IMG/VR virus record: IMGVR_UViG_3300007734_000761
Span: 1-64,000 of that record
Reading direction: 5' to 3' (one strand)
DNA from: a virus
DNA length: 64,000 bases
The notes beneath the pieces are model-generated. The model worked only from the letters and a program-made list of their open reading frames with translations. It was not told the DNA's origin and did not search any database. Positions within the stretch are counted from its first letter, which is position 1. Every line of letters begins with the position of its first letter. Of this stretch, positions 10,349 through 53,689 are shown piece by piece. The position numbers and the translations under genes were made by a program.

Positions 10349-10404
10349 AAAGTTTTTAAAAGATTTTTTTGAGAAAATTTTGAAAAAAATTGAGCTTACA
10401 GGAA

Positions 10405-10824
10405 TCAACCCTGCAAGCTCGCTCTTAATTCTTTAACATGTTTACAGTTACCATTACTTCTCCAAAACCCCATACATGAACACTTAAACTTACCAGTTGC
10501 TGTGTTGAATGTGGTTTTGTATTTGCCGTCTCCTGTTTTAACAGAAATGTCTGCTCTAGGACGTTTTTGAGGTTTCACCCACTCAATGTCTTCTAATGTT
10601 GTGAGTGGGTGAACTTCTTGCCACGTTGGGACTATAATTCGTTTACCGTTTAACGTAACTATAGATGGATTAATGTCTGTTTTAACTTCATATTTAAAAC
10701 ATTGTACTAAACGTGACACAACTTCTTTAACTGGTTTATATGATGTGGTTGTGTTTTCGTTCCACACGATTTCATCAGTTCGTGTTCCATCTCTTTTTAC
10801 TGTAATAACTCTATGTAAAGGCAT
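10405..10824 (-). CDS. SWIM zinc-finger protein
   Basis: CSCMGFWRSNGNCKHV matches CxCxnCxH. Confidence 0.8.
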   Translation of the reverse strand: MPLHRVITVKRDGTRTDEIVWNENTTTSYKPVKEVVSRLVQCFKYEVKTDINPSIVTLNGKRIIVPTWQEVHPLTTLEDIEWVKPQKRPRADISVKTGDGKYKTTFNTATGKFKCSCMGFWRSNGNCKHVKELRASLQG

Positions 10825-10879: not shown

Positions 10880-10993
10880 TTAATCTTCGTCGTCAACGAT
10901 AAATTTCTGTTTTTTCGGTTTTACTTTTTTCTTTAGTTCAGCTAACCAAACTTTAAAAACCGCTAAACGTTGTGTATTACTGTTCTTGCTCAT
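10880..10993 (-). CDS. small basic protein (37 aa, not in ORF track)
   Basis: MSKNSNTQRLAVFKVWLAELKKKVKPKKQKFIVDDED; fills the gap. Confidence 0.5.
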   Translation of the reverse strand: MSKNSNTQRLAVFKVWLAELKKKVKPKKQKFIVDDED

Positions 10994-11231
10994 TCTTCAA
11001 TTCTCCTGTTACTGGATTGATTTGAACGTTTGAACCATAAACAGTTTCTAAATGTTTAAGGAATTGTTCACGTTCAGCAATAGCTTTGTTTGACTGAGCA
11101 ATCCACTCTCTACGTTCTGCTTTCAAGTTTTCAATTTCAATTGTGTACTGGCCTGTTCTAAATGAGGCTTCTTCATACGTTTGAAGAATAGATTGCAATT
11201 TTTCTAGTTCTTCGGGTTTCAATGTGTTCAT
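10977..11231 (-). CDS. coiled-coil hypothetical protein
   Basis: Heptad-rich, ends YG..INPVTGE. Confidence 0.7.
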   Translation of the reverse strand: MNTLKPEELEKLQSILQTYEEASFRTGQYTIEIENLKAERREWIAQSNKAIAEREQFLKHLETVYGSNVQINPVTGELKNEQEQ

Positions 11232-11590
11232 TTTGTTGGATATAAATTATAAAATTTGTTTGTAATATTTCTTTTTAGTTTAGTAATTTTGATGTTAAAA
11301 CGTCTTGCTGCACATTCAATAACATATGTTTTAGGTTTTTCATTCAATGAACGAATATATTGTTTTAATGCCTTACCAAAGTCATTCTTATAAATACTAA
11401 ATAAGAACCAAAACAATTTCTTTTCATTGTAATCACTAAAAATCCATTTACCACCTTTATAAGTAGCAATTTTAGTGTTGTTTGAAGTGCCTTCATGTCC
11501 ACTGTACAACTCAAAATAATCTCGTTGTGTTTTAAATACTAAGTATTCCGTGTCGCTCAAATTGTAAATAAATGTATTATTAATTTCCAT
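11228..11590 (-). CDS. hypothetical protein
   Basis: 120 aa ORF after a class II promoter. Confidence 0.7.
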   Translation of the reverse strand: MEINNTFIYNLSDTEYLVFKTQRDYFELYSGHEGTSNNTKIATYKGGKWIFSDYNEKKLFWFLFSIYKNDFGKALKQYIRSLNEKPKTYVIECAARRFNIKITKLKRNITNKFYNLYPTK

Positions 11591-11606
11591 AACCTTTTAC
11601 TTTAAT

Positions 11607-11635
11607 ATTGTAATAAAAATCATTTAAAAAGCCAA
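11607..11635 (-). promoter_or_regulatory. class II (middle) promoter
   Basis: TTGGCT-N17-TACAAT. Confidence 0.7.
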
Positions 11636-11641
11636 ATTTTA

Positions 11642-11767
11642 TTAAAAGAAATAACCTTTTACATCCCATCCACCTGTTTCTTTTCTGAAATGGTAAATTG
11701 CTTGATAAAGTGAGTAACTATTTTTATTTGTGCCCCAATTACAGTAAGCTTCTATATCTAACATCAT
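11642..11767 (-). CDS. W/Y-rich microprotein B5 (41 aa)
   Basis: MMLDIEAYCNWGTNKNSYSLYQAIYHFRKETGGWDVKGYFF; ATGA overlap with B4. Confidence 0.75.
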   Translation of the reverse strand: MMLDIEAYCNWGTNKNSYSLYQAIYHFRKETGGWDVKGYFF

Positions 11768-11904
11768 ACAAATAACCAATTATATAAATCCACTCCATCA
11801 TCTTTATGAGTAAAATAATTTGACATTTGAATTAAATAAAATAAATGCCAACTATTACCATATTCACGATACATGTCCATTGTTGTAACTTCCCTGTATT
11901 TCAT
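11764..11904 (-). CDS. W/Y-rich microprotein B4 (46 aa)
   Basis: MKYREVTTMDMYREYGNSWHLFYLIQMSNYFTHKDDGVDLYNWLFV; ATGA overlap with B3. Confidence 0.75.
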   Translation of the reverse strand: MKYREVTTMDMYREYGNSWHLFYLIQMSNYFTHKDDGVDLYNWLFV

Positions 11905-12032
11905 AAAAATAGCCATTTACGTATTCCTTCATTCCGTCCTTTTTTCCAAATTCTAAATATTATTAATATTCCCTGAATACAATGAATATGACCCCATTGT
12001 GAATACATAAAAATTTTATCTTCTTTATTCAC
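11901..12032 (-). CDS. W/Y-rich microprotein B3 (43 aa, GTG start)
   Basis: MNKEDKIFMYSQWGHIHCIQGILIIFRIWKKGRNEGIRKWLFL; GTGA overlap with B2. Confidence 0.7.
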   Translation of the reverse strand: MNKEDKIFMYSQWGHIHCIQGILIIFRIWKKGRNEGIRKWLFL

Positions 12033-12163
12033 AGTGATAATATATTAACAATATTCCATCCATAACTTGTTTTTGAACTTAGAACATTTACATAATAAAT
12101 CATACTTTGTGACGCTTTACCCCTATTATAATCTGCCCACAATTCTACTTTTGAAGTTCTCAT
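12029..12163 (-). CDS. W/Y-rich microprotein B2 (44 aa)
   Basis: MRTSKVELWADYNRGKASQSMIYYVNVLSSKTSYGWNIVNILSL. Confidence 0.72.
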   Translation of the reverse strand: MRTSKVELWADYNRGKASQSMIYYVNVLSSKTSYGWNIVNILSL

Positions 12164-12171
12164 TTTACTTA

Positions 12172-12285
12172 TCAAAAAAACATTTTAATTAAAGTCCATC
12201 CTGTGTCAAATTTACCTGTTAAATAAAGCATGTAATAATGTAAGCATTCTCCATCTTTATTGTTGTAATCAGCCCACCACTTCAT
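12172..12285 (-). CDS. W/Y-rich microprotein B1 (37 aa)
   Basis: MKWWADYNNKDGECLHYYMLYLTGKFDTGWTLIKMFF; shares WADYN and GW with B2. Confidence 0.72.
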   Translation of the reverse strand: MKWWADYNNKDGECLHYYMLYLTGKFDTGWTLIKMFF

Positions 12286-12292
12286 TTTTGTT

Positions 12293-13414
12293 CTAAAAGC
12301 CAACTTTTTTATGTCCATTGTCTGTTACAAATTCTTTTTCATCAATATTGTAAATGTCAGCTAATGTCATTGGTTTAGTTGTAGTTTGTTCGTGTCCTAA
12401 GTGTTTCAACAAATTATTAGTTGATTCAACATCTAAACTATCAAATTTATGTTCAGCAATCAAACGACCTTTACGCAACAATGCTGGGTCAATTTTATTT
12501 CTGTTCATGTTAAAACTACAAATGATTTGAATGTTCATTACATCACCCATAATTCCATCAGTCATATTCAAAATGTTACTTACACCAATACTTGAACCAC
12601 TGCCTGATACCCTGTCACTTACTACACGTTCTGCGTCTTCAATTACTAATACACTGTCAGTGTATCTAGCCAAAAATGGAACAAACTCAGGTGAAGTAAT
12701 ACTTTCAGTCAAAAACGGTGGAACAAAAATTACCTTTTTAGTTTTATTTAATTGACTAACTAGCCATTTGATGTAAGTAGTTTTGCCTGTTCCTGGTTCA
12801 CCGTGCAACAATACAAGTCCTTTATTTTTCTTTTTACTTAATTCAGTAGTAATTTTATTATTTACTTCAGTAAAATTCTTACCATAATTTAATTCCAAAT
12901 CCATTTTAGGATTTTTAATGTCAAATTCTTCTAAGTCAAATCCGTTTCTAGTTTGAACAACTAAGTAAATTTGTGACATGTCTTCCTCTTCCTCTTCAAC
13001 AATGTATTTACTAAGTTTTTTAGTAATTTCTAACATTTCGTCTTTATAAGACTTAGTGAAAAATAATCTAACATCAGCGGAATCTTCTTCAATTTCCTCT
13101 ACATCTTCTAATCTCTTTTTATGGAGTTCTTCAATGTTAAAATGCCAATTACCTTCTACTTCTGCAATTACACAACCATCGTTGTTTTGTTTAATGAATA
13201 CTTTATATTTAGTAGACATTTCACCTTTACTAGATTTTAGTTCTTCAGTAATTAAGGTCCAATCATCAAAAATTTCAATTACACTTTTAATAAAATCGTC
13301 TCTAAAACCAAGTTCACTAGCAACTTCACCATAAGCCATTTGAATGTAAGTTGCTGGTTTGAATTGGCTATCGCTAATAACCCCAATTAAATTTTGTTTG
13401 ATAATTTCTTTCAT
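12293..13414 (-). CDS. AAA family ATPase (BCS1-like clade)
   Basis: LLHGEPGTGKT, VLVIEDAE, ILNMTDG, IDPALLRKGRL. Confidence 0.92.
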   Translation of the reverse strand: MKEIIKQNLIGVISDSQFKPATYIQMAYGEVASELGFRDDFIKSVIEIFDDWTLITEELKSSKGEMSTKYKVFIKQNNDGCVIAEVEGNWHFNIEELHKKRLEDVEEIEEDSADVRLFFTKSYKDEMLEITKKLSKYIVEEEEEDMSQIYLVVQTRNGFDLEEFDIKNPKMDLELNYGKNFTEVNNKITTELSKKKNKGLVLLHGEPGTGKTTYIKWLVSQLNKTKKVIFVPPFLTESITSPEFVPFLARYTDSVLVIEDAERVVSDRVSGSGSSIGVSNILNMTDGIMGDVMNIQIICSFNMNRNKIDPALLRKGRLIAEHKFDSLDVESTNNLLKHLGHEQTTTKPMTLADIYNIDEKEFVTDNGHKKVGF

Positions 13415-13436
13415 ATATAACCTTTTATGCCTTTAT

Positions 13437-13465
13437 AGTATAATAAAAGCTTTTTTAAAAACCAA
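13437..13465 (-). promoter_or_regulatory. class II (middle) promoter driving the AAA ATPase and microprotein array B
   Basis: TTGGTT-N17-TATACT. Confidence 0.75.
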
Positions 13466-13467
13466 AT

Positions 13468-14196
13468 TTAAAGTTTTTTTAATTTTAATTCTTCAATTAC
13501 ACAACTAGCCATTTTTCTGTGTCCTGAAGCTGTCATGTGACATAAGAAATCACCACAGTCAGTTCTTGAAATACAATGTGTTTTAATTACAACAGCTCGT
13601 TGAATTGAATCGACTAACATTTGTTGAAAACGAGCATAGCGTTGTGGATAACCTTGATAGGCTTGTCTTGTTCCTACATTAATACATGTTTTAGGATCAA
13701 ATCCTGTAATAACAATAGGTGTTACTTGATTTTTGTTACAAATGTCAACTATAGTTTGAATGTTTTTTACTGATTTTATTGGTGGTCTGTTTCCAGCCAT
13801 GTCATTTGCTCCACCATAAATAAAACAATAGTCAAAGTATTCTGTAACTTTAGCTTTGGCAACACCAACCATCCAAGTTGTTTGTTGTCCACCAACAGCT
13901 GTGTTTAAGTAAGTCATTCCTGTTTGTTTACAAACCTGATGTTGCCATCCGTAATCTGCAGCAGTATGTGAATCACCAATAAATAAAGCTTTTTTACCTC
14001 TTACAGAGGTTAAAGTTACAGGAATCACTTTAGGCGTGTCTATAACATTTGGTTTTACTGTGTCAAAAGCTATAAAAGCTGGCGACACACTAAGTGGAAG
14101 TTGACTTGCTAAAATTGAGGTGTAAATAATTGCTCCCCCAAACACTAATACTAGTGACGTAACTATAATATTTTTCATAAATTTAATTAGTATCAA
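13468..14196 (-). CDS. SGNH/GDSL hydrolase with N-terminal membrane anchor
   Basis: FIGDSHT, AVGG, YGGAND, DFLCH blocks. Confidence 0.88.
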   Translation of the reverse strand: MILIKFMKNIIVTSLVLVFGGAIIYTSILASQLPLSVSPAFIAFDTVKPNVIDTPKVIPVTLTSVRGKKALFIGDSHTAADYGWQHQVCKQTGMTYLNTAVGGQQTTWMVGVAKAKVTEYFDYCFIYGGANDMAGNRPPIKSVKNIQTIVDICNKNQVTPIVITGFDPKTCINVGTRQAYQGYPQRYARFQQMLVDSIQRAVVIKTHCISRTDCGDFLCHMTASGHRKMASCVIEELKLKKL

Positions 14197-14924
14197 AGTC
14201 CTTTCATTAACTTAGGTAAAATTTCAGTTCTAAATTTAGCTCTAATTCCATTTAAGCCTTGAACTGTAGGTGTTTTACCAGTTATTTGTCCAATAATTTT
14301 ACCTACCTCAGCAGCTGTCAATTCTTGGTATCTAGGATCTGTTGTCCATTTTAAAGCATATTTGTGAACTGGATTTTTAATTCCGGTTTCTAATTGTTTT
14401 AATCGTTTTTGAAACACTTCATTGTCCATCATTCCGTCAATGCGTTCTTGAGCTCCCATTTCACCCACAACATCAGCTACAGTTAATGCATCACCTTCTT
14501 TACTTGTTCCAATTGGTTTGTCTAATGAAATTGCTTTTCTTCTTGCTTTTTCTTTACCATAGTTGATAGTAGCATTTCTGATAGCCATTCTAGCATATGC
14601 TCCATATTCATTAGGCTTAGTCCAATCAAATTTTCTACTAGCACGAAGCATGGCTTCACTAGCATAACTAATGAAGTCGTCTACAGGAACACCATTACTA
14701 GCTGCTCCTACTTCTTTATACCATAAAGGCATAAGACGCAAATAACTTGAAATAACTCGTCTTTTTAAGTCTTCTTTAGTTTTGTTATCTACATTAGGAT
14801 CGTTTATTTGTTTTCTTATCGAAACACGTTCTTCACTAGACAATGGATTAAACTCGTCTCCTCTAACAGCCTTAACATATTCGTTCCAAGTAATTTCTAA
14901 TAACAGCTGTTTTAATGTAGTCAT
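14193..14924 (-). CDS. divergent sigma70-family factor with N-terminal LxE leader
   Basis: Region 1.2 NPLSSEER; region 2 VISSYLRL..DDFISYASEAMLRASRKFD..YGAYARMAIRNA; ISLDKPIG; region 4 LTAAEVGKIIG. Confidence 0.82.
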   Translation of the reverse strand: MTTLKQLLLEITWNEYVKAVRGDEFNPLSSEERVSIRKQINDPNVDNKTKEDLKRRVISSYLRLMPLWYKEVGAASNGVPVDDFISYASEAMLRASRKFDWTKPNEYGAYARMAIRNATINYGKEKARRKAISLDKPIGTSKEGDALTVADVVGEMGAQERIDGMMDNEVFQKRLKQLETGIKNPVHKYALKWTTDPRYQELTAAEVGKIIGQITGKTPTVQGLNGIRAKFRTEILPKLMKGL

Positions 14925-14931
14925 ATATAAT

Positions 14932-14992
14932 ATAAATATTAGAAGAGATTTGTTCTCTTATATAATATAATAAATTTATTTTTAAAGTCCAA
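14932..14992 (-). promoter_or_regulatory. tandem class II promoter and class III late motif upstream of the second sigma
   Basis: TTGGAC-N17-TATATT (14964-14992), small hairpin AAGAGA/TCTCTT, then ATATTTAT (14932-14939). Confidence 0.65.
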
Positions 14993-16604
14993 ATCTATTT
15001 CTCTGAGTATTAAAGTTTTGGTTAACCTCCGAAGCAGTAAACGCTTTACCTTGATAAACTTGAACTGTAGATATATCACCCTGGAAATTAGCTGCCCAAC
15101 TTCCTCCTATAATATCAATAGGATTATTATTTCCAGCATTGGTAGGAGAAATAGTAGTATCTAAAACACCATCTACATACATATCCATAGTGTAACCTAC
15201 TTTATTTACCCAAGTAAGCATATGCCAAGCTCCGTTGTTTACAGTTATAGTTCCTTGCCATCCTTTCCAACTATTTATGTTTGAGGGATAAACCCAATAT
15301 ACTATTTTACCTCCATTTATTCCCATCATAGAATAAACCGGACCACCATTTGAGTTAGATAAAACTGAACCAGCTCCTAAACCATTAGCAGCTGTTGTTG
15401 TTTTAACCCAAGCATTTACTGTCCAATTAGAATTTCCATCACCTAATGAAAAACTATAATTAGAATTATCTAATAAAATTCTATCATCAACTCCATCAAA
15501 TGACCAATAACCTCCATTTCCTGAATTATAACTAACTCCGTTTTGAAGAGTACCATTAGTACTACTAGTCATATTGTATGTAGTGGTACCAGTTCTAGGA
15601 TATGATTTTAAATTACCAGCATCCCATAAATGAGTTAAACTACCGGTTACTATAGGAGCTTGAAAATAATTTTGATTAACTTCAGCTTGGGTTAATGCTC
15701 TGTTGTATACTTTAAATACAGCACAGTCCATAGGCATATAATAACCACCATAGCCCCAAGTTGCTATAAACCCATTTCCTCCTGCAAAACTTTTACCACC
15801 TTCTCCACCATATTGTTGACTTAAAGTTTGTAAAATTCCATTAATGTAAATTTTATTATTAGTATAAGAAACATCACTTCTAAATTCAAAAATATAGTGT
15901 GCCCACCTATTAATAACACCTAACGAATTCACTGTAGATTGAGAAATACCATAAACGTCACCCCCACCGGTATTATATCCTATAGTTCCCCCATTGCACC
16001 ATACATCATAAGATGTATTCCACCCACAAAACATTTTTCCACTATACCCATCTCCAATTTTACATAACATTTCAATAGTAGCAATTGTTCCTAAATTAGG
16101 AGCGTAAAAAGGAACATAATCATCTGCTCCGTCAAATACAATAGCTCCGTTTGCATTAAATGTAAGACCATTAGTTAAAGTACCATTATTTGAACCCCCA
16201 CTTACATCATACCAAGTAGTTCCTGTTTTAGGATATGAAGATGCCATACCAGCATTTAAGTTTAATACTAAACCATTAGTTACACTAACAGGAATATCAT
16301 CACTAGAAGCAATAACTATTTTATCTGTTTGAGTAGAAAAGTAATCTAAACAAGCAGCAGCACTACCATATGTTGTTCCAGATATGTGTTTTGTAAAACT
16401 AATTAATGAAGCATCATTTGATGCTACATAAATGCTAGGACCACCAGATGCTTTGTATTGGTATATAACATATCCACCTGAAGGTGGCTCAACAGTAGTA
16501 TAAAAAGTAGATCCGTAGTCAAAGGCACCTGGTCCAATAGCCATGTTACCTTTTCTTAAACTACCTGAAGGAGTAGTTGTGCTGTATTTTACTACTTTAG
16601 GCAT
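14982..16604 (-). CDS. virion protein with two LamG/concanavalin A-like domains
   Basis: Two copies of IVTxGL..DAG..SYPxTGTTW..NGTL.NG..FDGxDD..YNRAL..EV.QNF. Confidence 0.88.
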   Translation of the reverse strand: MPKVVKYSTTTPSGSLRKGNMAIGPGAFDYGSTFYTTVEPPSGGYVIYQYKASGGPSIYVASNDASLISFTKHISGTTYGSAAACLDYFSTQTDKIVIASSDDIPVSVTNGLVLNLNAGMASSYPKTGTTWYDVSGGSNNGTLTNGLTFNANGAIVFDGADDYVPFYAPNLGTIATIEMLCKIGDGYSGKMFCGWNTSYDVWCNGGTIGYNTGGGDVYGISQSTVNSLGVINRWAHYIFEFRSDVSYTNNKIYINGILQTLSQQYGGEGGKSFAGGNGFIATWGYGGYYMPMDCAVFKVYNRALTQAEVNQNYFQAPIVTGSLTHLWDAGNLKSYPRTGTTTYNMTSSTNGTLQNGVSYNSGNGGYWSFDGVDDRILLDNSNYSFSLGDGNSNWTVNAWVKTTTAANGLGAGSVLSNSNGGPVYSMMGINGGKIVYWVYPSNINSWKGWQGTITVNNGAWHMLTWVNKVGYTMDMYVDGVLDTTISPTNAGNNNPIDIIGGSWAANFQGDISTVQVYQGKAFTASEVNQNFNTQRNRFGL

Positions 16605-16605
16605 A

Positions 16606-16884
16606 TTAAGGTCTAGATCCTGACATAGGAGCAGTCCATTCTGGAGTGTCTAAAATAACTAAAAATTCATCATAAGTGTATTCTTGTGATTTAGTAGTCA
16701 AACCAGCTACTGATGATGGTTGAGGCATGTCATACTTAACAAATGTTTTTGTTTCGTCTACTGATTTGCGAACTGTGTTGATGTCTGTTTCAAATACTTG
16801 AGTAAAGTCAATTTGATTAAGTTCTGTTACGTTAAAAATAACAAAACGTCTGTCGGGGTATTCTTGTTGAATTAATGATGCCAT
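16606..16884 (-). CDS. small protein associated with LamG virion genes
   Basis: IDFTQV.ET..TVRKSVDETKTFVKY..EWT; late motif upstream. Confidence 0.7.
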   Translation of the reverse strand: MASLIQQEYPDRRFVIFNVTELNQIDFTQVFETDINTVRKSVDETKTFVKYDMPQPSSVAGLTTKSQEYTYDEFLVILDTPEWTAPMSGSRP

Positions 16885-16895
16885 ATATATAAATA

Positions 16896-17888
16896 TTAAA
16901 GTCCAAAGCGACCTTTTTGAGCGTTGTAGTTTTGGGTAATTTCTGATTGTGATAATACCCTATTATACATTTGAAAACTATAAACATTTCCATCTAACGG
17001 ATAATATGTGCCTCCAATTTGTAAACCTGTTAGATTACCCAATCCAGCACTTCCTCCTTCTATTGTTGTTAATAAATTACCATTTTTGTAAAACTTTATA
17101 TTTCCACTTGATAAACCGTTTCCATTATAGGTCATTGTAAAATGAAAAATCTGATTTGTAGGAAATTCACTAGTAGTTTGGGTAAAGTTCGTTTGGACTG
17201 CAGTGCTATTTTTTATAAAATACCAATAACTTTTTTGATCAGTATAAAATACATTTGTAACAATATAATGTGAACTATTGGATGAATTTAAATTAACTAA
17301 ACATTTATCACCAAGAGTATCGAGTTTCATCCATGAACTAAAGGACCAAGCTCTTGTTGACCAATCAATATTACCAAATGGGGAGGTTACTTGAACGTAA
17401 TCATCTACCCCATCAAACACAATTGAACCACTATTAGTAGAGTTAAATGTGGGTCCATTAGTTAATGTTCCATTATTAGAATTTCCACTTAAATCATACC
17501 AAGTAGTTCCTGTAGTTGGATATGAAGGATCGAACCCAGCATCCACATTTAACACTAAACCATTAGTTACAATTCCCTCATAATTAAAATTAACAACTAT
17601 TTTGTCTGTTTGAGTAGCAAAATAAGCTAAACATTGAGCAGCAGTAGTATAATTAGCTCCTGCTATTTGATTAGTTATACTAATTAATTGTGTATCGTTA
17701 GCAGGACAATAAATGCTTGGTCCACCACTAGCTTTATTTAAATAAATTGTGTAACCACCTGCTGGAGGATTAATTCCTGTGTAAAAAGCATTTCCTGTAT
17801 CAGCAGTATTATTGCTGATTAACATGTTGCCTTTTCTAAGACAACCTGCTTCAGTAGCTCCTGTTGAGTATTTTATTCCGTTAGGCAT
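16896..17888 (-). CDS. virion protein with a single LamG-like domain
   Basis: N-terminal domain paralogous to 14982..16604; LamG motifs; ends QNYNAQKGRFGL. Confidence 0.88.
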   Translation of the reverse strand: MPNGIKYSTGATEAGCLRKGNMLISNNTADTGNAFYTGINPPAGGYTIYLNKASGGPSIYCPANDTQLISITNQIAGANYTTAAQCLAYFATQTDKIVVNFNYEGIVTNGLVLNVDAGFDPSYPTTGTTWYDLSGNSNNGTLTNGPTFNSTNSGSIVFDGVDDYVQVTSPFGNIDWSTRAWSFSSWMKLDTLGDKCLVNLNSSNSSHYIVTNVFYTDQKSYWYFIKNSTAVQTNFTQTTSEFPTNQIFHFTMTYNGNGLSSGNIKFYKNGNLLTTIEGGSAGLGNLTGLQIGGTYYPLDGNVYSFQMYNRVLSQSEITQNYNAQKGRFGL

Positions 17889-17958
17889 TATATAATATAA
17901 ATATAAGACACAAGAAGGAGCATACGCTCCTTCAAGTTGACTTATACATTGTAATTTA

Positions 17959-18804
17959 TTATTTTTTAATTATTTTTTTACTTGTTCCATCACTGTAAAT
18001 ATAAATCACCAATTCCTCCTCTTTAACGTTATAAACACGTCTACCCATCATATCATACATTGCAACTAATTTAGGTTCAGGACGAGTTAAATTAACCACA
18101 TTAGATGTTGGTCCTGATTTACACACATCCAAACGTCTAAACATGAAAGTATCTTGTTTAATACACTTATTCCACCATTGTGCAATCATTAATACACGAC
18201 CTGTATCTTTAAACGTAAAATCAGCAAGTCTAGTTTGAGTATAACCTAAAAAGTCATCATCCGGAAAATCGTATTCCATACCAATTTGGTAGTCAGTCAA
18301 ACCGTCCCATTCTTTTTGTGACATAGTATCCATCCAAGGACCTTTATAGAACATCAAGTAATATTCCATACAAGTATCTTTCAAGGGCATGTTTTTAATA
18401 TAGTTCATTTCAAACAAATATCTTTTACAATCAGTTGGTTTTACTTGCCAACCCAATCCAGCACCGGGAAACTGAACGATTTCGATTGGACGATAAAGTG
18501 CCGTATCACACTTCAAACATTTATTCCATACTTTCAAATACAATTTGTATTTACCTTTAACATTAAATTGTACCTCAACAATACCCCTAAAATCCTGAAC
18601 TGTATCAGTTTTCTTAGTTTGAAAATCATACACCATAAACAAATAATCCACACAGGTGTCATCTAATACTTGTCCACTTACATACCACTTGTAGTAATTA
18701 CGTTCATTCCATTGTTGGAGTTTCAATGTGCTCCAATCACATTTTGCGTTCAAACCCAATACTGTCGATAGGGTGAAAAAAAGAATCATTAGTTGTTTTT
18801 TCAT
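17959..18804 (-). CDS. secreted protein with T9SS-like C-terminal sorting region
   Basis: Signal peptide MKKQLMILFFTLSTVLGLNA; C-terminus YDMMGRRV..IYIYSDGTSKKIIKK; two internal beta-rich repeats ending WNKC..DT. Confidence 0.7.
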   Translation of the reverse strand: MKKQLMILFFTLSTVLGLNAKCDWSTLKLQQWNERNYYKWYVSGQVLDDTCVDYLFMVYDFQTKKTDTVQDFRGIVEVQFNVKGKYKLYLKVWNKCLKCDTALYRPIEIVQFPGAGLGWQVKPTDCKRYLFEMNYIKNMPLKDTCMEYYLMFYKGPWMDTMSQKEWDGLTDYQIGMEYDFPDDDFLGYTQTRLADFTFKDTGRVLMIAQWWNKCIKQDTFMFRRLDVCKSGPTSNVVNLTRPEPKLVAMYDMMGRRVYNVKEEELVIYIYSDGTSKKIIKK

Positions 18805-18894
18805 ATTGATTTTTTATTGTTTTATTTGTTATTGATACAGTAATTATAAATATCAAAATTAGTAATATGCTATACGGATTTAGTTTCATAAAAT

Positions 18895-19032
18895 TTAAGT
18901 AAAAAGCCACCCATATAAAGTCCAGTTATCATTTTCTTCACTTTCATTAAAAACATAAGTAAAACTTCTCATGTGAAATCCCATGATTTCACTATCATTC
19001 CATTTTATATAACTATACATATAACTTCTCAT
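18895..19032 (-). CDS. W/Y-rich microprotein A5 (45 aa)
   Basis: MRSYMYSYIKWNDSEIMGFHMRSFTYVFNESEENDNWTLYGWLFT. Confidence 0.78.
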   Translation of the reverse strand: MRSYMYSYIKWNDSEIMGFHMRSFTYVFNESEENDNWTLYGWLFT

Positions 19033-19033
19033 A

Positions 19034-19195
19034 TTATTTTATATCTTCATTAAAAAACCATTGATAGTATGTCCACTTATATGATGGGGGGTTTTTGTGA
19101 AATCTTATAATTGTGCCTTTCATGTCATAGCTATAGAAAGTGCCATCACTCCACCTCATGTATTCACGCATGTCCATTATTCTAAAACTATTCAT
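19034..19195 (-). CDS. W/Y-rich microprotein A4 (53 aa)
   Basis: MNSFRIMDMREYMRWSDGTFYSYDMKGTIIRFHKNPPSYKWTYYQWFFNEDIK. Confidence 0.78.
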   Translation of the reverse strand: MNSFRIMDMREYMRWSDGTFYSYDMKGTIIRFHKNPPSYKWTYYQWFFNEDIK

Positions 19196-19319
19196 ATAAC
19201 CATAAATTAATAGTTTGACCTTTGTTGCCTTCTTTAAATGCTTTAATTGTTGATATTATTCCCCAACCCCAACCAACTGTAGAATTCCAACTAGTGTAAA
19301 GTTCCATTTTAGTTGTCAT
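19188..19319 (-). CDS. W/Y-rich microprotein A3 (43 aa)
   Basis: MTTKMELYTSWNSTVGWGWGIISTIKAFKEGNKGQTINLWLYE. Confidence 0.78.
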   Translation of the reverse strand: MTTKMELYTSWNSTVGWGWGIISTIKAFKEGNKGQTINLWLYE

Positions 19320-19461
19320 ATAACCATTCATAAAAACTAATCCAATCTATAGGAAAATTAATGTGAAATGAAGTAATTGTATCATACATACTGTATCCAT
19401 AGCTTTTACTACTATTCCACGCTGAATATTCTCTTATTTGACTTTTTCCAAAACTACTCAT
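19309..19461 (-). CDS. W/Y-rich microprotein A2 (50 aa)
   Basis: MSSFGKSQIREYSAWNSSKSYGYSMYDTITSFHINFPIDWISFYEWLYDN. Confidence 0.78.
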   Translation of the reverse strand: MSSFGKSQIREYSAWNSSKSYGYSMYDTITSFHINFPIDWISFYEWLYDN

Positions 19462-19597
19462 ATAACCATTCTCTTAAATCCCAATAAACTTTATATTCAT
19501 CATAATTGAATTCACGAACAAAATCCCACATAGAATAACTTCCTGCACCATTCCAATTACTATAAGTCAATATGTGAATATGTGGTGGTTTTTTCAA
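19454..19597 (-). CDS. W/Y-rich microprotein A1 (47 aa, TTG start)
   Basis: MKKPPHIHILTYSNWNGAGSYSMWDFVREFNYDEYKVYWDLREWLYE; TTGA overlap. Confidence 0.75.
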   Translation of the reverse strand: MKKPPHIHILTYSNWNGAGSYSMWDFVREFNYDEYKVYWDLREWLYE

Positions 19598-19716
19598 AAT
19601 CTTTTTTTATCTGTTATCCAATTTACTGAGTATACTGCACATCCATCTTCATACACGGCCCATCTCAACATTTTCAGCCATAATTTTTCTTTATTTTCCT
19701 TGTAATTCGTAGTCAA
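19594..19716 (-). CDS. Trp-rich microprotein A0 (40 aa, TTG start, divergent)
   Basis: MTTNYKENKEKLWLKMLRWAVYEDGCAVYSVNWITDKKRF; its stop overlaps the A1 start. Confidence 0.5.
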   Translation of the reverse strand: MTTNYKENKEKLWLKMLRWAVYEDGCAVYSVNWITDKKRF

Positions 19717-19981
19717 AATAATATCCTAAATAATTTGTTCTTACAATTTTAGATATAATGTAATCTGGGTGTTCCTTTAACATACATTGAAGACCATCAT
19801 CATACCAAAAACCTTTGTCTATAAAAAACAATGAACTATTCTTTACTATACTTTCCATATAGTACTTAGTTTGGCTACTCCAAGGTGAAGTTCTTGAATT
19901 GATATTATTGTCAAGATCCCAACCACGCAGTGCGTCTTGTGGAGAATAGCCAAACTGAGTCCAATATCTCTTTTTAGTCAT
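19691..19981 (-). CDS. aromatic-rich hypothetical protein heading microprotein array A
   Basis: 96 aa, W/Y/F-rich. Confidence 0.6.
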   Translation of the reverse strand: MTKKRYWTQFGYSPQDALRGWDLDNNINSRTSPWSSQTKYYMESIVKNSSLFFIDKGFWYDDGLQCMLKEHPDYIISKIVRTNYLGYYFDYELQGK

Positions 19982-20468
19982 TCATTTGATATTCAATGCC
20001 CAACAAATCAGCTACTCGTTTGTTGATTTCATGAATTTCAACTTCAATTAGTTCTTTGCGTTCGTCAGTGCAATTATCATCTAACCATTCTTCAGCTAAA
20101 TACTTACGAGCAACAAAGTTTTTTTCAATCAAAGCTGCTACTTTGACGTCCATCCAATGAACAATGTCATTGCCTTCTTTTGTTTTACCTAACTCAACTT
20201 TAGTTTCATGAGTAAGAAATTCTTCTTCCTCAAGGTAAACAAAGAAATCTACTACTTCTTTCATAGTCTCAGCATCCATTTCATACCAATCCATAATGTT
20301 TGCTTGACTCAACGTTTGAACTTGTTTCATAGTTTCTTTATCGTCCAAGTTACAGTTTTTCAACATTTGAATTCCCATTTTACTGGCTTGTTTGTCTTTA
20401 CTCAAAATCATTGATTTGAGTGTTTGAATTGACTCACTGTCAAATGTATGTACATTTTTCCTTTTCAT
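19974..20468 (-). CDS. hypothetical protein; N-terminus paralogous to the C-terminal domain of 5032..6027
   Basis: See alignment under 5032..6027. Confidence 0.75.
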   Translation of the reverse strand: MKRKNVHTFDSESIQTLKSMILSKDKQASKMGIQMLKNCNLDDKETMKQVQTLSQANIMDWYEMDAETMKEVVDFFVYLEEEEFLTHETKVELGKTKEGNDIVHWMDVKVAALIEKNFVARKYLAEEWLDDNCTDERKELIEVEIHEINKRVADLLGIEYQMND

Positions 20469-20484
20469 AACCTTTTACAGTAAT

Positions 20485-20513
20485 ATTATAATAAAACTTT
20501 TTTAAAAAGCCAA
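20485..20513 (-). promoter_or_regulatory. class II (middle) promoter driving the operon containing microprotein array A
   Basis: TTGGCT-N17-TATAAT. Confidence 0.78.
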
Positions 20514-20516
20514 ATT

Positions 20517-21422
20517 TTACAAAAAATCTTTTTTATATTTCATAACAGCCAACTCCTTTGCTTTACATTCCATCATTACATCTACATCTAAACCATAAGT
20601 CTCACACTTGTTGAGATAATAATCACTATGTGCTTGCATTTTAACTTTTAGTCCTTCATTTAGGGCTTTAGATTCACTGTAGTGAACAATGGGTTTAATG
20701 TCACCCCATGTTGATACAGCGAGTCGTAGTGCTTCTTCTTCGGATTGGCCGCCTGTACAAAATTTATGATGGTGGTAGTCGAATACGATTGGTATGTTCG
20801 CATTTTTGAATATTCCTTCGAATAGTTCTTTAGTTGAGTACATATTCCCTTTGTCGTCGTTTTCGATGGTAAGTCTACTTTTAATTGCATCTGGTAAATT
20901 GTTGAAATTCTTTAGAAATGTTTTAATGGCTTGTTGTTTATCACCATACGTTGCGCCCATATGTATGTTGATTTTATTGTAATGTGTTCGACTCAAACCC
21001 ATTAAGTCCATAATGTCACTGTGCATTTGTAAGTCACTTACACTATTATCAATAACAGACTGATGAGGACTAGTAAGAATACAATATTGGCCTGGATGCA
21101 TTGTAAGTCTCATTCCATGTTTTGTAGCAAATTCACCACAACGAGCTAAAACATCTTTAATTTCATTAAAATCTTTAAAACTAAACCAATCAACTTTATT
21201 TCCCCAAGGAATCATATTGCTAGACATTCGAAATACAAGAATGTCATTTTCATAGTTCCAGTGAAGATATTTTTCAAGATCTCTAATATTTTGAACAGCG
21301 AGTTCACTACAATATTCTAAACCTTTTTTGTCTAGAGTTGCTTTCTTTAAACTTCTGTTTGTTGTAACACCTTCTTTTTTGAGTGTTTCATTAATGCAAG
21401 CGTAACCATAATTTTTATTCAT
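20517..21422 (-). CDS. uvdE: UV damage endonuclease
   Basis: GYACIN, FRMSS, RLTMHPGQY, INIHMG, RLTIENDD, VFDYHHH, HYSES, AHSD, MMECKAKE. Confidence 0.95.
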   Translation of the reverse strand: MNKNYGYACINETLKKEGVTTNRSLKKATLDKKGLEYCSELAVQNIRDLEKYLHWNYENDILVFRMSSNMIPWGNKVDWFSFKDFNEIKDVLARCGEFATKHGMRLTMHPGQYCILTSPHQSVIDNSVSDLQMHSDIMDLMGLSRTHYNKINIHMGATYGDKQQAIKTFLKNFNNLPDAIKSRLTIENDDKGNMYSTKELFEGIFKNANIPIVFDYHHHKFCTGGQSEEEALRLAVSTWGDIKPIVHYSESKALNEGLKVKMQAHSDYYLNKCETYGLDVDVMMECKAKELAVMKYKKDFL

Positions 21423-51458: not shown

Positions 51459-51803
51459 TTATTCGTTATTTAAAGTGTTTGATATTGCTATTCCATCTTC
51501 TTCATCAACTTTTTGAACTAACATTTTATCTCGGTCTTCTGAATTAAACCAGTAATCAATTACTTTGTTTAAGTTACCTACGAAAGCACCTAATAAAATA
51601 AGTAACATTTCTTTCCAAGATTCAATAATTTCAATCTTAGCAAAAATAGCTACGTTAATTCCCAAAACAATAAAAAAGAATAATCCTAATACAATTGCTG
51701 TAATCTTCCAACGATTAACTTGCATTTGTTGTAACATGTAATAGAAACGATTTTTATCGTCTACTTTTACATAATCTGATTTGAATAAATTTCCTAATTT
51801 CAT
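51459..51803 (-). CDS. two-TM membrane protein
   Basis: Two hydrophobic helices; LLGAFVG..VIDYWF. Confidence 0.75.
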   Translation of the reverse strand: MKLGNLFKSDYVKVDDKNRFYYMLQQMQVNRWKITAIVLGLFFFIVLGINVAIFAKIEIIESWKEMLLILLGAFVGNLNKVIDYWFNSEDRDKMLVQKVDEEDGIAISNTLNNE

Positions 51804-53689
51804 TTATTTATAATTATTTTAGAAGTTGAAATTTTAGTATCTGTTTTTACTGATAAAAAGTAAAAACCATCTTCAAGTTTAGTTAAATTAACAACATACT
51901 TATATTCACCAACAGGCATTTTAGTGTTGATAACTTCCATAACTTTTCTGCCTACTAAGTCACTAACTGCAACTTCTGTTTGAGATTCTTGATCTACTCT
52001 GAATTGAAGAGTAATTTCACCACTATTTGGATTAGGGAATACAATAAGATCTTCTAATTCGGTTAATTTAACAGGCTTATTAATTCTTCTTACTTCAATT
52101 ACTCCCATTGCTGGAGTAATGTTCATGTCTCTTGCATCATTACCTCCAACAAACTTAGGTCCGGTCCAAATAGCAGCACTTGACCATTCTTCTTGTGGTT
52201 TTTTGGCGATAAATTGCATTACTAAAATTTGTTCACCGTCGTTGATTAACTGATTTCCTTTTAAGTCAGCTGCACCGAAAGCAACCACTCCGTCAGAAGG
52301 GTTAGTATATGAAGTCCAGTTCATCATTTTTTCAGTCAAATCGATTTTCTTGAACTCAAGTAATGCTGTGTCGTATTTTAACTCTAATTGAACTGCCCCT
52401 AATTGTTTTCCGTTAGTAAGCATTTTAACAGGAACGTTAACTAAGTTACCTTCGTCAACTTTAACTTTAGGCATATTAACCTCAATAGTCTCAGTTACAT
52501 TATCGTATTGAACTGTGTTGTCGATGATGTAGTTTTTAGCATTAACGGGGTTAATAATCTTAATAGGAGTCAAACGAGCCATTTTAAAGCCTGTATTATT
52601 TGCATCACCCTTAACTGCTACATAGTAAGTAATAGAATCTTTACCATCAATTGAGTAATTAAAGTTATTAATAGTAGCGTAAGTACCTGTTAAGTTAGTA
52701 GCTGATCCGTTGATTGCATTGTATTCGGCAACTGTGAAGAACATTACATCCTTCTTGCCATTAGGCCAAGCCGTGAATCTACCTGCCAATCTTCCATATA
52801 CTGAATAAACGTCTGCAATACTAATTGAACCATCAGTGTTGTTTACATCCATTGTATAATAATCAAAGCCTGAAGGAGTGTATTGTGCTAAGATAGACTG
52901 GTTAATCTTTTGAGCGTCTGCAGTTGAAATAACAGATCCAGGAGTCATTGTATCTCCTTTAACCACCATTCTAACATCCCAGTAAGTAGTATCTAAGAAT
53001 TTTCTAAATACAACATGACCTAATGAGTTAGTTGCTTTAGCTTCTACTTGAGTCCAAGATCCACCTGGTGCTTTCTTTTCTAAAGACACCCACAAGTTTT
53101 TAGCATCTGAACCAGTAACGTTCTTAAACTTAGCAGCAAAGCGTAATACTTTTTGATTGAAACGACCACCGTAAGAATAAACTACTAAAGTAGTATCGTT
53201 ACCAAAGTTAGTAGCTGCTTTGTTTGCGAATGATTTAACACCTGCAACTTTCAAAGTCTTAATAGAATCTAAATTGTTCCATACCGAGCTTCCGGCATGA
53301 GTAAAAGTCAAATCAAAAGTAGCACCGTTTGAATAATTAAATGTTGAACTAGTTCCTGTGTAAACTAGAGTAACAGTTAAGAATCCTTGAGCATTACTAT
53401 CCACATATTGAAGATATTGGTCAGTAGCAGAAATCTTTAATGAAGGAACAACTGCTGTAAATGCAGTGTTGTCATAAAATACTCTGTACTGCATACCAGT
53501 GATCTTTTCAGATGTAGAAGTATTGTAGAAGTGTAAAGGGGCAACAGTTTGCCCGGCAGTAGTAGTTGCTACTTGATAACCAGAATCAATTACCACCCAG
53601 TGCCCTGTTCCAGGTGATGTTGCTGACGATTGTGCTGATGCTTCGAAAATGGCTAAAGCCGTTAATAAGAATGCGATTATTTTTTTCAT
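51800..53689 (-). CDS. T9SS cargo protein with cohesin-like and dockerin-like domains
   Basis: Signal peptide; cohesin-like ITGMQYRVFYD and VNVPV..LGAVQLELKYD..LEF; dockerin-like ISTADA..DVN..GSISIADV; CTD FPNP..DLVGRKV..L..GFYFL..KIIINK. Confidence 0.88.
   Translation of the reverse strand: MKKIIAFLLTALAIFEASAQSSATSPGTGHWVVIDSGYQVATTTAGQTVAPLHFYNTSTSEKITGMQYRVFYDNTAFTAVVPSLKISATDQYLQYVDSNAQGFLTVTLVYTGTSSTFNYSNGATFDLTFTHAGSSVWNNLDSIKTLKVAGVKSFANKAATNFGNDTTLVVYSYGGRFNQKVLRFAAKFKNVTGSDAKNLWVSLEKKAPGGSWTQVEAKATNSLGHVVFRKFLDTTYWDVRMVVKGDTMTPGSVISTADAQKINQSILAQYTPSGFDYYTMDVNNTDGSISIADVYSVYGRLAGRFTAWPNGKKDVMFFTVAEYNAINGSATNLTGTYATINNFNYSIDGKDSITYYVAVKGDANNTGFKMARLTPIKIINPVNAKNYIIDNTVQYDNVTETIEVNMPKVKVDEGNLVNVPVKMLTNGKQLGAVQLELKYDTALLEFKKIDLTEKMMNWTSYTNPSDGVVAFGAADLKGNQLINDGEQILVMQFIAKKPQEEWSSAAIWTGPKFVGGNDARDMNITPAMGVIEVRRINKPVKLTELEDLIVFPNPNSGEITLQFRVDQESQTEVAVSDLVGRKVMEVINTKMPVGEYKYVVNLTKLEDGFYFLSVKTDTKISTSKIIINK

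Follow-up and report, generated by a model that had tools for sequence, protein, structure and literature searches.

We identified, in an uncultured phage, a family of ten miniproteins of 41-53 aa encoded in two tandem arrays, in which a conserved hydrophobic and aromatic core is combined with a highly variable surface. The family is undescribed, and we regard it as about an even call that it is a phage multigene family of mini-binders serving host interaction or counter-defence. The window, that is, the whole 64-kb stretch of DNA that was analysed, is the start of a 176,311-bp IMG/VR virus record rated 100% complete. The features on which the argument turns are the following:

12293-13414, minus strand: AAA ATPase, 373 aa, with a classical AAA domain at residues 201-319 (PF00004, E = 3e-9)
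12172-12318, minus strand: B1, 48 aa from ATG 12318 or 37 aa from ATG 12285; WADYN subtype; family HMM E = 1.5e-10
12029-12175, minus strand: B2, 48 aa if begun at TTG, which overlaps the B1 stop (TTGA), or 44 aa from ATG 12163; WADYN subtype
11901-12032, minus strand: B3, 43 aa, GTG start, GTGA overlap with the B2 stop
11764-11904, minus strand: B4, 46 aa, ATG start overlapping the B3 stop (ATGA); may instead begin at 11916, giving 50 aa
11642-11767, minus strand: B5, 41 aa, ATG start, ATGA overlap with the B4 stop
18895-19597, minus strand: array A, five paralogues (A1-A5) of 45-53 aa, of the same family as B1-B5

The genome has a GC content of 32% and carries almost all its genes on the minus strand. 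When 6 kb of the window were compared with a phage collection by megablast no match was obtained, so a close relative is absent from that collection. The Flavobacterium phage vB_FspM_immuto encodes proteins ~30% identical to one structural-region protein of the window phage, and a 629-aa protein of the window (51800-53689, minus strand) combines a cohesin domain with a C-terminal type IX secretion sorting domain (PF18962). Because of these two features, the host is very probably a member of the Bacteroidota.

Array B consists of five back-to-back ORFs of 41-48 aa on the minus strand (12318-11642), downstream of the AAA ATPase. The first-pass annotation had described five ORFs of 37-46 aa starting 7 nt after the ATPase stop; the number of ORFs stands, while the sizes had to be revised and B1 probably begins further upstream. 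Its upstream start, ATG 12318, overlaps the 3' end of the ATPase gene by 26 nt and is present in five of the five lineages compared, whereas ATG 12285, located 7 nt past the ATPase stop, is replaced by CTG in two related loci (L011 and L012). On these grounds the true start of B1 is probably 12318, giving a protein of 48 aa. Each of the four junctions within array B is a 4-nt overlap: the three ATGA or GTGA overlaps noted earlier are found at B2/B3 (GTGA), B3/B4 and B4/B5 (both ATGA), and TTGA at B1/B2, if B2 uses its TTG, adds a fourth. Such NTGA overlaps are the classic arrangement for termination-reinitiation. The start of B5 is also used by the database orthologues P0007 and P0014. The motifs that had been read from the five ORFs (WADYN twice, YSQWG, YREYG and YCNWG) and their aromatic C-termini are all present, and the distance between the arrays, previously given as about 6.6 kb, is 6.58 kb.

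Two small ORFs next to array A gave no match to the family HMM. One, of 40 aa (19594-19716, minus strand), lies between a 96-aa gene and A1; the other, hydrophobic and of 57 aa (18737-18910, minus strand), overlaps the end of A5 and the start of a lipoprotein-like gene. Between this lipoprotein-like gene and a sigma-like gene sits a segment (14982-17888, minus strand) encoding a 330-aa protein (Laminin_G_3) and a 540-aa protein, which match the same two PHROGs, one of them annotated as a virion structural protein. Gene calling gave none of these sizes at the equivalent place in L011-L013, L015 and L016, and the segment is an insertion or deletion polymorphism that extends the distance between the arrays from ~2.9-3.6 kb to 6.6 kb.

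The ten ORFs, B1-B5 and A1-A5, are real, separately translated genes, because their conserved residues are encoded by synonymous codons, no DNA-level repeats were found between the paralogues, no RNA family was found by an Rfam scan of the region 11000-20600, and a set of core columns is conserved in the protein alignment. The Tyr residues of column 7 are written as TAT 33 times and TAC 21 times, and the Leu residues of column 41 as TTA (34), CTT (8), CTA (3) or TTG (2). Fourteen columns (4, 7, 10, 11, 17, 19, 22, 23, 26, 35, 37, 40, 41 and 42) have low entropy and are almost always hydrophobic or aromatic, and the entropy of the remaining 28 is close to 3 bits. Amino-acid changes counted inside 15 orthologue clusters came to 1.43 per core column and 3.79 per column elsewhere (Mann-Whitney p = 9e-6), and the core is clearly under purifying selection. 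Since the paralogues share no DNA-level repeats, the copies are old. The possibility that the arrays are a single repeat protein in pieces was rejected: neighbouring ORFs lie in different frames, they are joined by NTGA overlaps and they are separate genes in 20 of 20 loci. A fused longer form was sought among 1.84 billion representative proteins and none was found, the sole long match being a spurious repeat protein; P0029 (410 aa, five matched stretches) was rejected as a fused repeat form, being an unrelated low-complexity repeat protein. Separately, a 410-aa ORF that adjoins the ATPase in L004 and L010 is without any family motif.

We then compared the two arrays with each other. An HMM built from array A, searched against the 2735 stop-to-stop ORFs of the genome, gave as its first non-self match B5 (E = 2.2e-5), the array B member nearest to array A, and the HMM of array B searched against the same ORFs gave A5 first (E = 0.0066). 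When the profiles were aligned with hhalign, they matched over 44 columns with a probability of 95.6% and an E-value of 1.3e-8. The summed cross-scores were 38.5 and 40.6 bits against maxima of 20.5 and 21.1 bits for 2000 composition-preserving shuffles, all of which were beaten in both directions. Arrays A and B thus belong to one family, as the first-pass annotation had proposed subject to such a shuffled control. Taken singly, B1 fails it: it gave no match to the array A profile and 1364 of the 2000 shuffles score as well. Its tie to the family is its clear similarity to B2, with which it shares WADYN and forms the subtype suggested before. An iterated HMM search of the whole genome converged on exactly ten members, in agreement with the earlier estimate of at least ten. 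Bridging forms occur in relatives, where the C-terminal WLYD or FLYE of A-site members recurs in part of the B-site members, and A-site and B-site members interleave in a tree that, with 42 columns only, is weakly resolved.

Next, we looked for the family in public databases and in the literature. All 34 members were scanned against Pfam-A and PHROGs v4, and no family was matched by more than one member (best E-values 0.018-0.019). A profile search of 5.8 billion proteins returned 25 clusters, all orthologous to the ten window genes, and an exhaustive HMMER search of 1.84 billion representatives returned 29 proteins, all of them comparable micro-ORFs (41-65 aa) with the exception of a single spurious low-complexity repeat protein. 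The contigs encoding the database matches are close relatives of the window phage. A feature search of the ESM Atlas with A2 gave a best score of 0.84, below the useful range, a word-index comparison with other genomes gave no look-alike stretches, and nothing on this miniprotein family was found in the literature searched. Arrays of fast-evolving small phage genes are, as a phenomenon, already known.

To place the arrays within transcription units we examined the sequences upstream of the neighbouring genes. An element of ~50 nt, AAATTTGGYTTTTTAAA..TTTTATTAYAATA..AAAAGGTT-ATG, occurs in just three nearly identical copies in the 176 kb, and AAATTTGG is used here as shorthand for this promoter type:

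13420-13469, minus strand: promoter-like element AAATTTGGTTTTTAAAAAAGCTTTTATTATACTATAAAGGCATAAAAGGTT, whose end lies immediately ahead of the ATPase ATG; kept in L011, L012, L016 and L017
11591-11639, minus strand: second promoter-like copy, 3 nt after the B5 stop, heading the unit of a 120-aa gene; kept in L011, L012, L016, L017 and L022
20469-20517, minus strand: third promoter-like copy, heading the unit that contains a 164-aa gene, the 96-aa gene and array A; kept in L012

A looser relative of the element lies at genome position 104794. The three-copy element differs from the TTGCCT-type elements (9173, 6102 and 1586) and likewise from the ATATTTAT motif, found in front of several genes that include the sigma-like and the lipoprotein-like gene. 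A scan with the sigma-70 consensus was uninformative, giving 62 sites against 65.9 expected. With the copy that follows B5, the ATPase-array B unit comes to its end. Among terminator-like hairpins on the coding strand of the region, the two whose stems are longest and richest in GC lie at 10392-10420 (minus strand), after a 139-aa gene, and at 17914-17933 (minus strand), after the lipoprotein-like gene; neither of them falls between the ATPase and array B. The arrays therefore form the ends, far from the promoter, of two units that share one regulatory class. The first-pass annotation had likewise put each array at the distal end of an operon with a shared promoter class; the same rare element heads both units, and its positions are conserved in relatives. 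This promoter class may act in middle infection, as the first-pass annotation inferred.

The ATPase that precedes array B had been called BCS1-like. Its domain is indeed of the classical AAA clade and BCS1 chains are matched weakly (E = 1.2e-4), but its best solved relatives are AFG2 (E = 2e-13), Cdc48 and the proteasomal Rpt subunits, and a BCS1_N or BCS1-type N-domain is absent among its 16 Pfam matches; the label is thus a loose term. The N-terminal ~165 aa matched no known family. Homologues of the AAA part are found in jumbo phages, e.g., PA5oct and XacN1.

This neighbourhood raises the alternative that fares best against the mini-binder reading, namely that the miniproteins are clients or adaptors of the ATPase, which dock on its N-domain or are threaded through it and so either retarget the unfoldase or are themselves remodelled or delivered. 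The order promoter, ATPase, array, with the 26-nt overlap by which the first array gene begins inside the 3' end of the ATPase gene, is kept in every relative whose ATPase is 83-97% identical, and a functional tie to the ATPase explains it no less naturally than does the mini-binder reading. In the window and in the lineages of L011-L024, the first array gene behind the ATPase is always of the WADYN subtype. At greater distance the linkage proposed by the first-pass annotation dissolves: two complete genomes, G001 (179.7 kb) and G002 (194.9 kb), encode the ATPase (55 and 46% identical, respectively) and no family member anywhere, and in L002 a GDSL gene, the ATPase and a 124-aa gene adjoin directly, the array being absent. 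Array A, moreover, belongs to a different unit 5.5 kb away from the ATPase. L027-L030 carry six members in an array with GDSL behind it, and gene calling gave no ATPase in that region; no such array follows the homologues in PA5oct and XacN1. Given that the family is missing from G001 and G002 and that arrays also occur away from the ATPase, the latter does not need the family, and the adjacency is conserved but lineage-specific. The ATPase also evolves slowly (pN/pS ~0.1 when compared with relatives), as opposed to the fast peptides, and there is no sign of co-variation. A complex prediction with the full ATPase (9-row alignment) and B1 (34-row alignment) returned no answer (score 0.00) and is evidence neither way. 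Overall, the conserved adjacency and overlap favour the suggestion of adaptors or substrates, the genomes lacking the family and the arrays located elsewhere speak against it, and we consider it unlikely.

In the more distant L003 (2918-3974, plus strand), six or seven ORFs measuring 45-58 aa make up a further tandem array, which ends 12 nt before the ATPase orthologue (L003:3986-5137); YYEL(Y) forms the C-terminus of four of these ORFs. This array was rejected as kin of the family (hhalign probability 1%). The same ATPase is thus flanked by unrelated small-ORF arrays in two lineages, that of the window and that of L003, which favours a link between ATPase and arrays; ATPases of this type may be accompanied repeatedly by variable arrays of small proteins. 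In a bolder version of the client or adaptor reading, the arrays would be a fast-evolving adaptor library for the co-transcribed AAA+ unfoldase, in which the aromatic scaffold docks and the variable surface delivers different host proteins, for instance a defence factor, for unfolding; in that case, the L003 array would have solved the same problem independently. This version strikes us as distinctly improbable.

Next, we followed the arrays through the relatives. In 20 related loci the family HMM recovered 129 instances, corresponding to 60 unique sequences and 33 clusters at less than 55% identity. At the threshold used for the family, the window and L011, L013 and L015 each have five members at the B site, L017-L020 and L022-L024 have four, and L012, L014 and L016 have seven, and the A site has three to seven (leaving out of the count a split copy in L015). 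Orthologues of B2 are present in L011-L024. The first array gene of the seven loci with four B-site members is a hybrid (L017:2634-2807), in which the N-terminal leader of B1 (MEIKKLAFRTKMK) is joined to the body of B2, suggesting a deletion via recombination between B1 and B2. Two decaying copies were found, a frameshifted A5 orthologue (L015:1887-2028) and a truncated member (L011:946-1056), each within an array that is otherwise intact.

To compare rates of evolution between the window and L017, we used B2-B5 (173 codons) as the array and six genes (~1100 codons) as the flank. The flanking genes showed a pS of 0.077 and a pN of 0.007, and B2-B5 a pS of 0.164 and a pN of 0.107. Array pN is therefore 15-fold above that of the flank (p = 1e-25) and array pS ~2-fold (p = 0.007), with a non-synonymous to synonymous odds ratio, array versus flank, of 7.5 (p = 1.2e-7). 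Because pS is also raised, part of the divergence of the arrays may stem from recombination with distant alleles. Pooled pN/pS is ~0.65 for the arrays versus 0.09 for the flanking genes; for single pairs it ranges from 0.33 to 4.1, no pair being significant alone for positive selection, and B4 is the fastest-evolving member (pN 0.09-0.18). Protein evolution is thus much faster in the arrays and concentrated at non-core sites, and positive selection is not proven by these rates. By comparison, a basic ORF of 37 aa in the window (10880-10993, minus strand; MSKNSNTQRLAVFKVWLAELKKK...) has a conserved 36-aa counterpart in both L002 and L003, where the ATPase is only 55-57% identical; it is a slowly evolving microprotein, unlike the arrays.

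The high pN/pS could reflect relaxed constraint instead of an arms race, and the genes would in that case be near-neutral paralogues, real and dispensable, that drift under weak constraint and have no diversified function. A pooled ratio of 0.65, the broken copies and the differences in presence and absence among close relatives are what such drift would leave. It accounts poorly for the purifying selection on the core columns, for a dedicated promoter architecture that is conserved, and for frames, overlaps and 33 distinct lineages that are maintained across relatives in copies that are old and free of DNA-level repeats. We find it rather improbable.

The composition of the miniproteins bears on their location. 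Aromatic residues make up 21% of the family versus 9.7% in the long ORFs of the genome, and Trp 5.5% versus 1.2%. No signal peptide or membrane-spanning stretch was found in the family proteins, the mean GRAVY is -0.41, the net charge ranges from -6 to +9 and the pI from 4.2 to 11.2, and from this composition the miniproteins are predicted to be soluble. AlphaFold models of B5 (34 sequences) and B4 (58 sequences) are of low confidence (pLDDT 63-64), and both place three short helices at equivalent positions; we read the family as a putative small helical scaffold whose aromatic core is conserved and whose surface is free to change.

The abundance of Trp and Tyr, together with the hydrophobic aromatic C-termini and the position of array A beside the lipoprotein-like gene and a small hydrophobic ORF, is also what would be expected of peptides that act at the membrane interface or envelope, with a Trp- and Tyr-rich surface at the lipid, in superinfection exclusion, lysis timing or envelope remodelling. 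However, the aromatic positions are the conserved core and not the variable surface, the charges have no common cationic amphipathic character, signal peptides and membrane spans are lacking from these hydrophilic proteins, and the lipoprotein-like gene has its own ATATTTAT motif and so apparently forms a separate unit, all of which makes an envelope role very doubtful. Finally, the size, tandem paralogy and variable centre of the miniproteins resemble, by analogy with what is generally known of RiPP loci, precursor peptides with conserved recognition ends and a variable middle, but this is extremely improbable, as neither unit was found to encode a modifying enzyme, a protease or an exporter (of twelve proteins scanned with Pfam, four matched, to AAA, GDSL, sigma region 2 and Laminin_G_3, and eight had no match), the alignment has no conserved Cys, Ser or Thr pattern, and the conserved positions are patterned like the hydrophobic core of a helical protein that folds.

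Returning to the mini-binder reading, we propose that each gene would give rise to a soluble protein of ~45 residues with three predicted short helices, in which ~14 hydrophobic or aromatic positions would hold the fold and all others would be free to vary. The conserved pattern comprises Y-x-x-[WY]-[NG] towards the N-terminus and W-x-[LI]-x-x-W-[LM]-[FY] at the C-terminus, with a predicted amphipathic helix in between. The genes would be transcribed as the distal part of two units from one dedicated promoter type and probably translated by termination-reinitiation at the 4-nt overlaps, and the arrays evolve through gene birth and death, recombination and rapid change of exposed residues. The most likely role would be that of a repertoire of small binders, each directed against a different host or competitor target, as accessory factors of host takeover or counter-defence. 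Known counter-defence loci usually consist of unrelated proteins instead of paralogues, which counts against this reading. In neither unit was an HTH gene seen, the kind of regulator (aca type) to which Acr-type anti-defence loci may be linked.

Small phage genes are routinely missed, and all ten genes described here fall below common ORF cut-offs, yet they make up one coherent family. The conserved 14-residue hydrophobic core, the hypervariable surface, the 15-fold elevated pN and the change of copy number between near-identical phages form the pattern expected in host-virus conflict. Should the members bind different targets, they would constitute a natural library of ~45-residue binders and a handle on the poorly known defence and takeover biology of Bacteroidota phages. 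If they instead work with the adjacent AAA ATPase, they would represent a new way for phages to diversify unfoldase specificity and, under the adaptor-library version, a programmable system made of an unfoldase plus an adaptor repertoire.

Several known systems share some of these properties. A WXG100/ESAT-6-like hairpin was rejected: the miniproteins measure 41-53 aa versus ~100 aa, carry [WY]-[NG] in place of W-x-G and gave no match to PF06013, and the neighbouring ATPase is a classical AAA protein and not of the FtsK/SpoIIIE type with which WXG100 secretion is paired. The T-even internal proteins IPI-III, of which at least one, IPI*, counters host defence, are encoded by a locus that resembles the arrays, as it specifies small proteins that are polymorphic and vary from one close relative to the next. 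They share an N-terminal capsid-targeting tag cleaved after Glu, whereas the miniproteins have variable N-termini and conserved internal and C-terminal motifs; the ~10-residue shared tag ending in Glu of a T4-type internal protein was not found, as the N-terminal columns are gapped and of high entropy and conservation starts at the I/M-x-x-Y motif.

The MGF families of ASFV and the gene 'accordions' of poxviruses are tandem arrays of paralogues with copy-number change, rapid divergence and a link to host interaction. The miniprotein arrays are like them in their tandem paralogues, copy-number change and rapid divergence, and differ in belonging to another virus realm and host, in encoding far smaller proteins, in having no recent DNA-level duplicates and in being known from sequence alone. 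The accessory regions of T4-type phages and the host-takeover module of SPO1 are hyperplastic clusters of packed, often translationally coupled small genes behind non-late promoters, variable between close relatives, dispensable for core functions and mostly unrelated to one another. The arrays described here share with these clusters the runs of packed small genes and the variability between relatives; unlike them, they consist of ten paralogues built on a single 45-residue scaffold, which occupy two sites and show measurable diversification of the surface.
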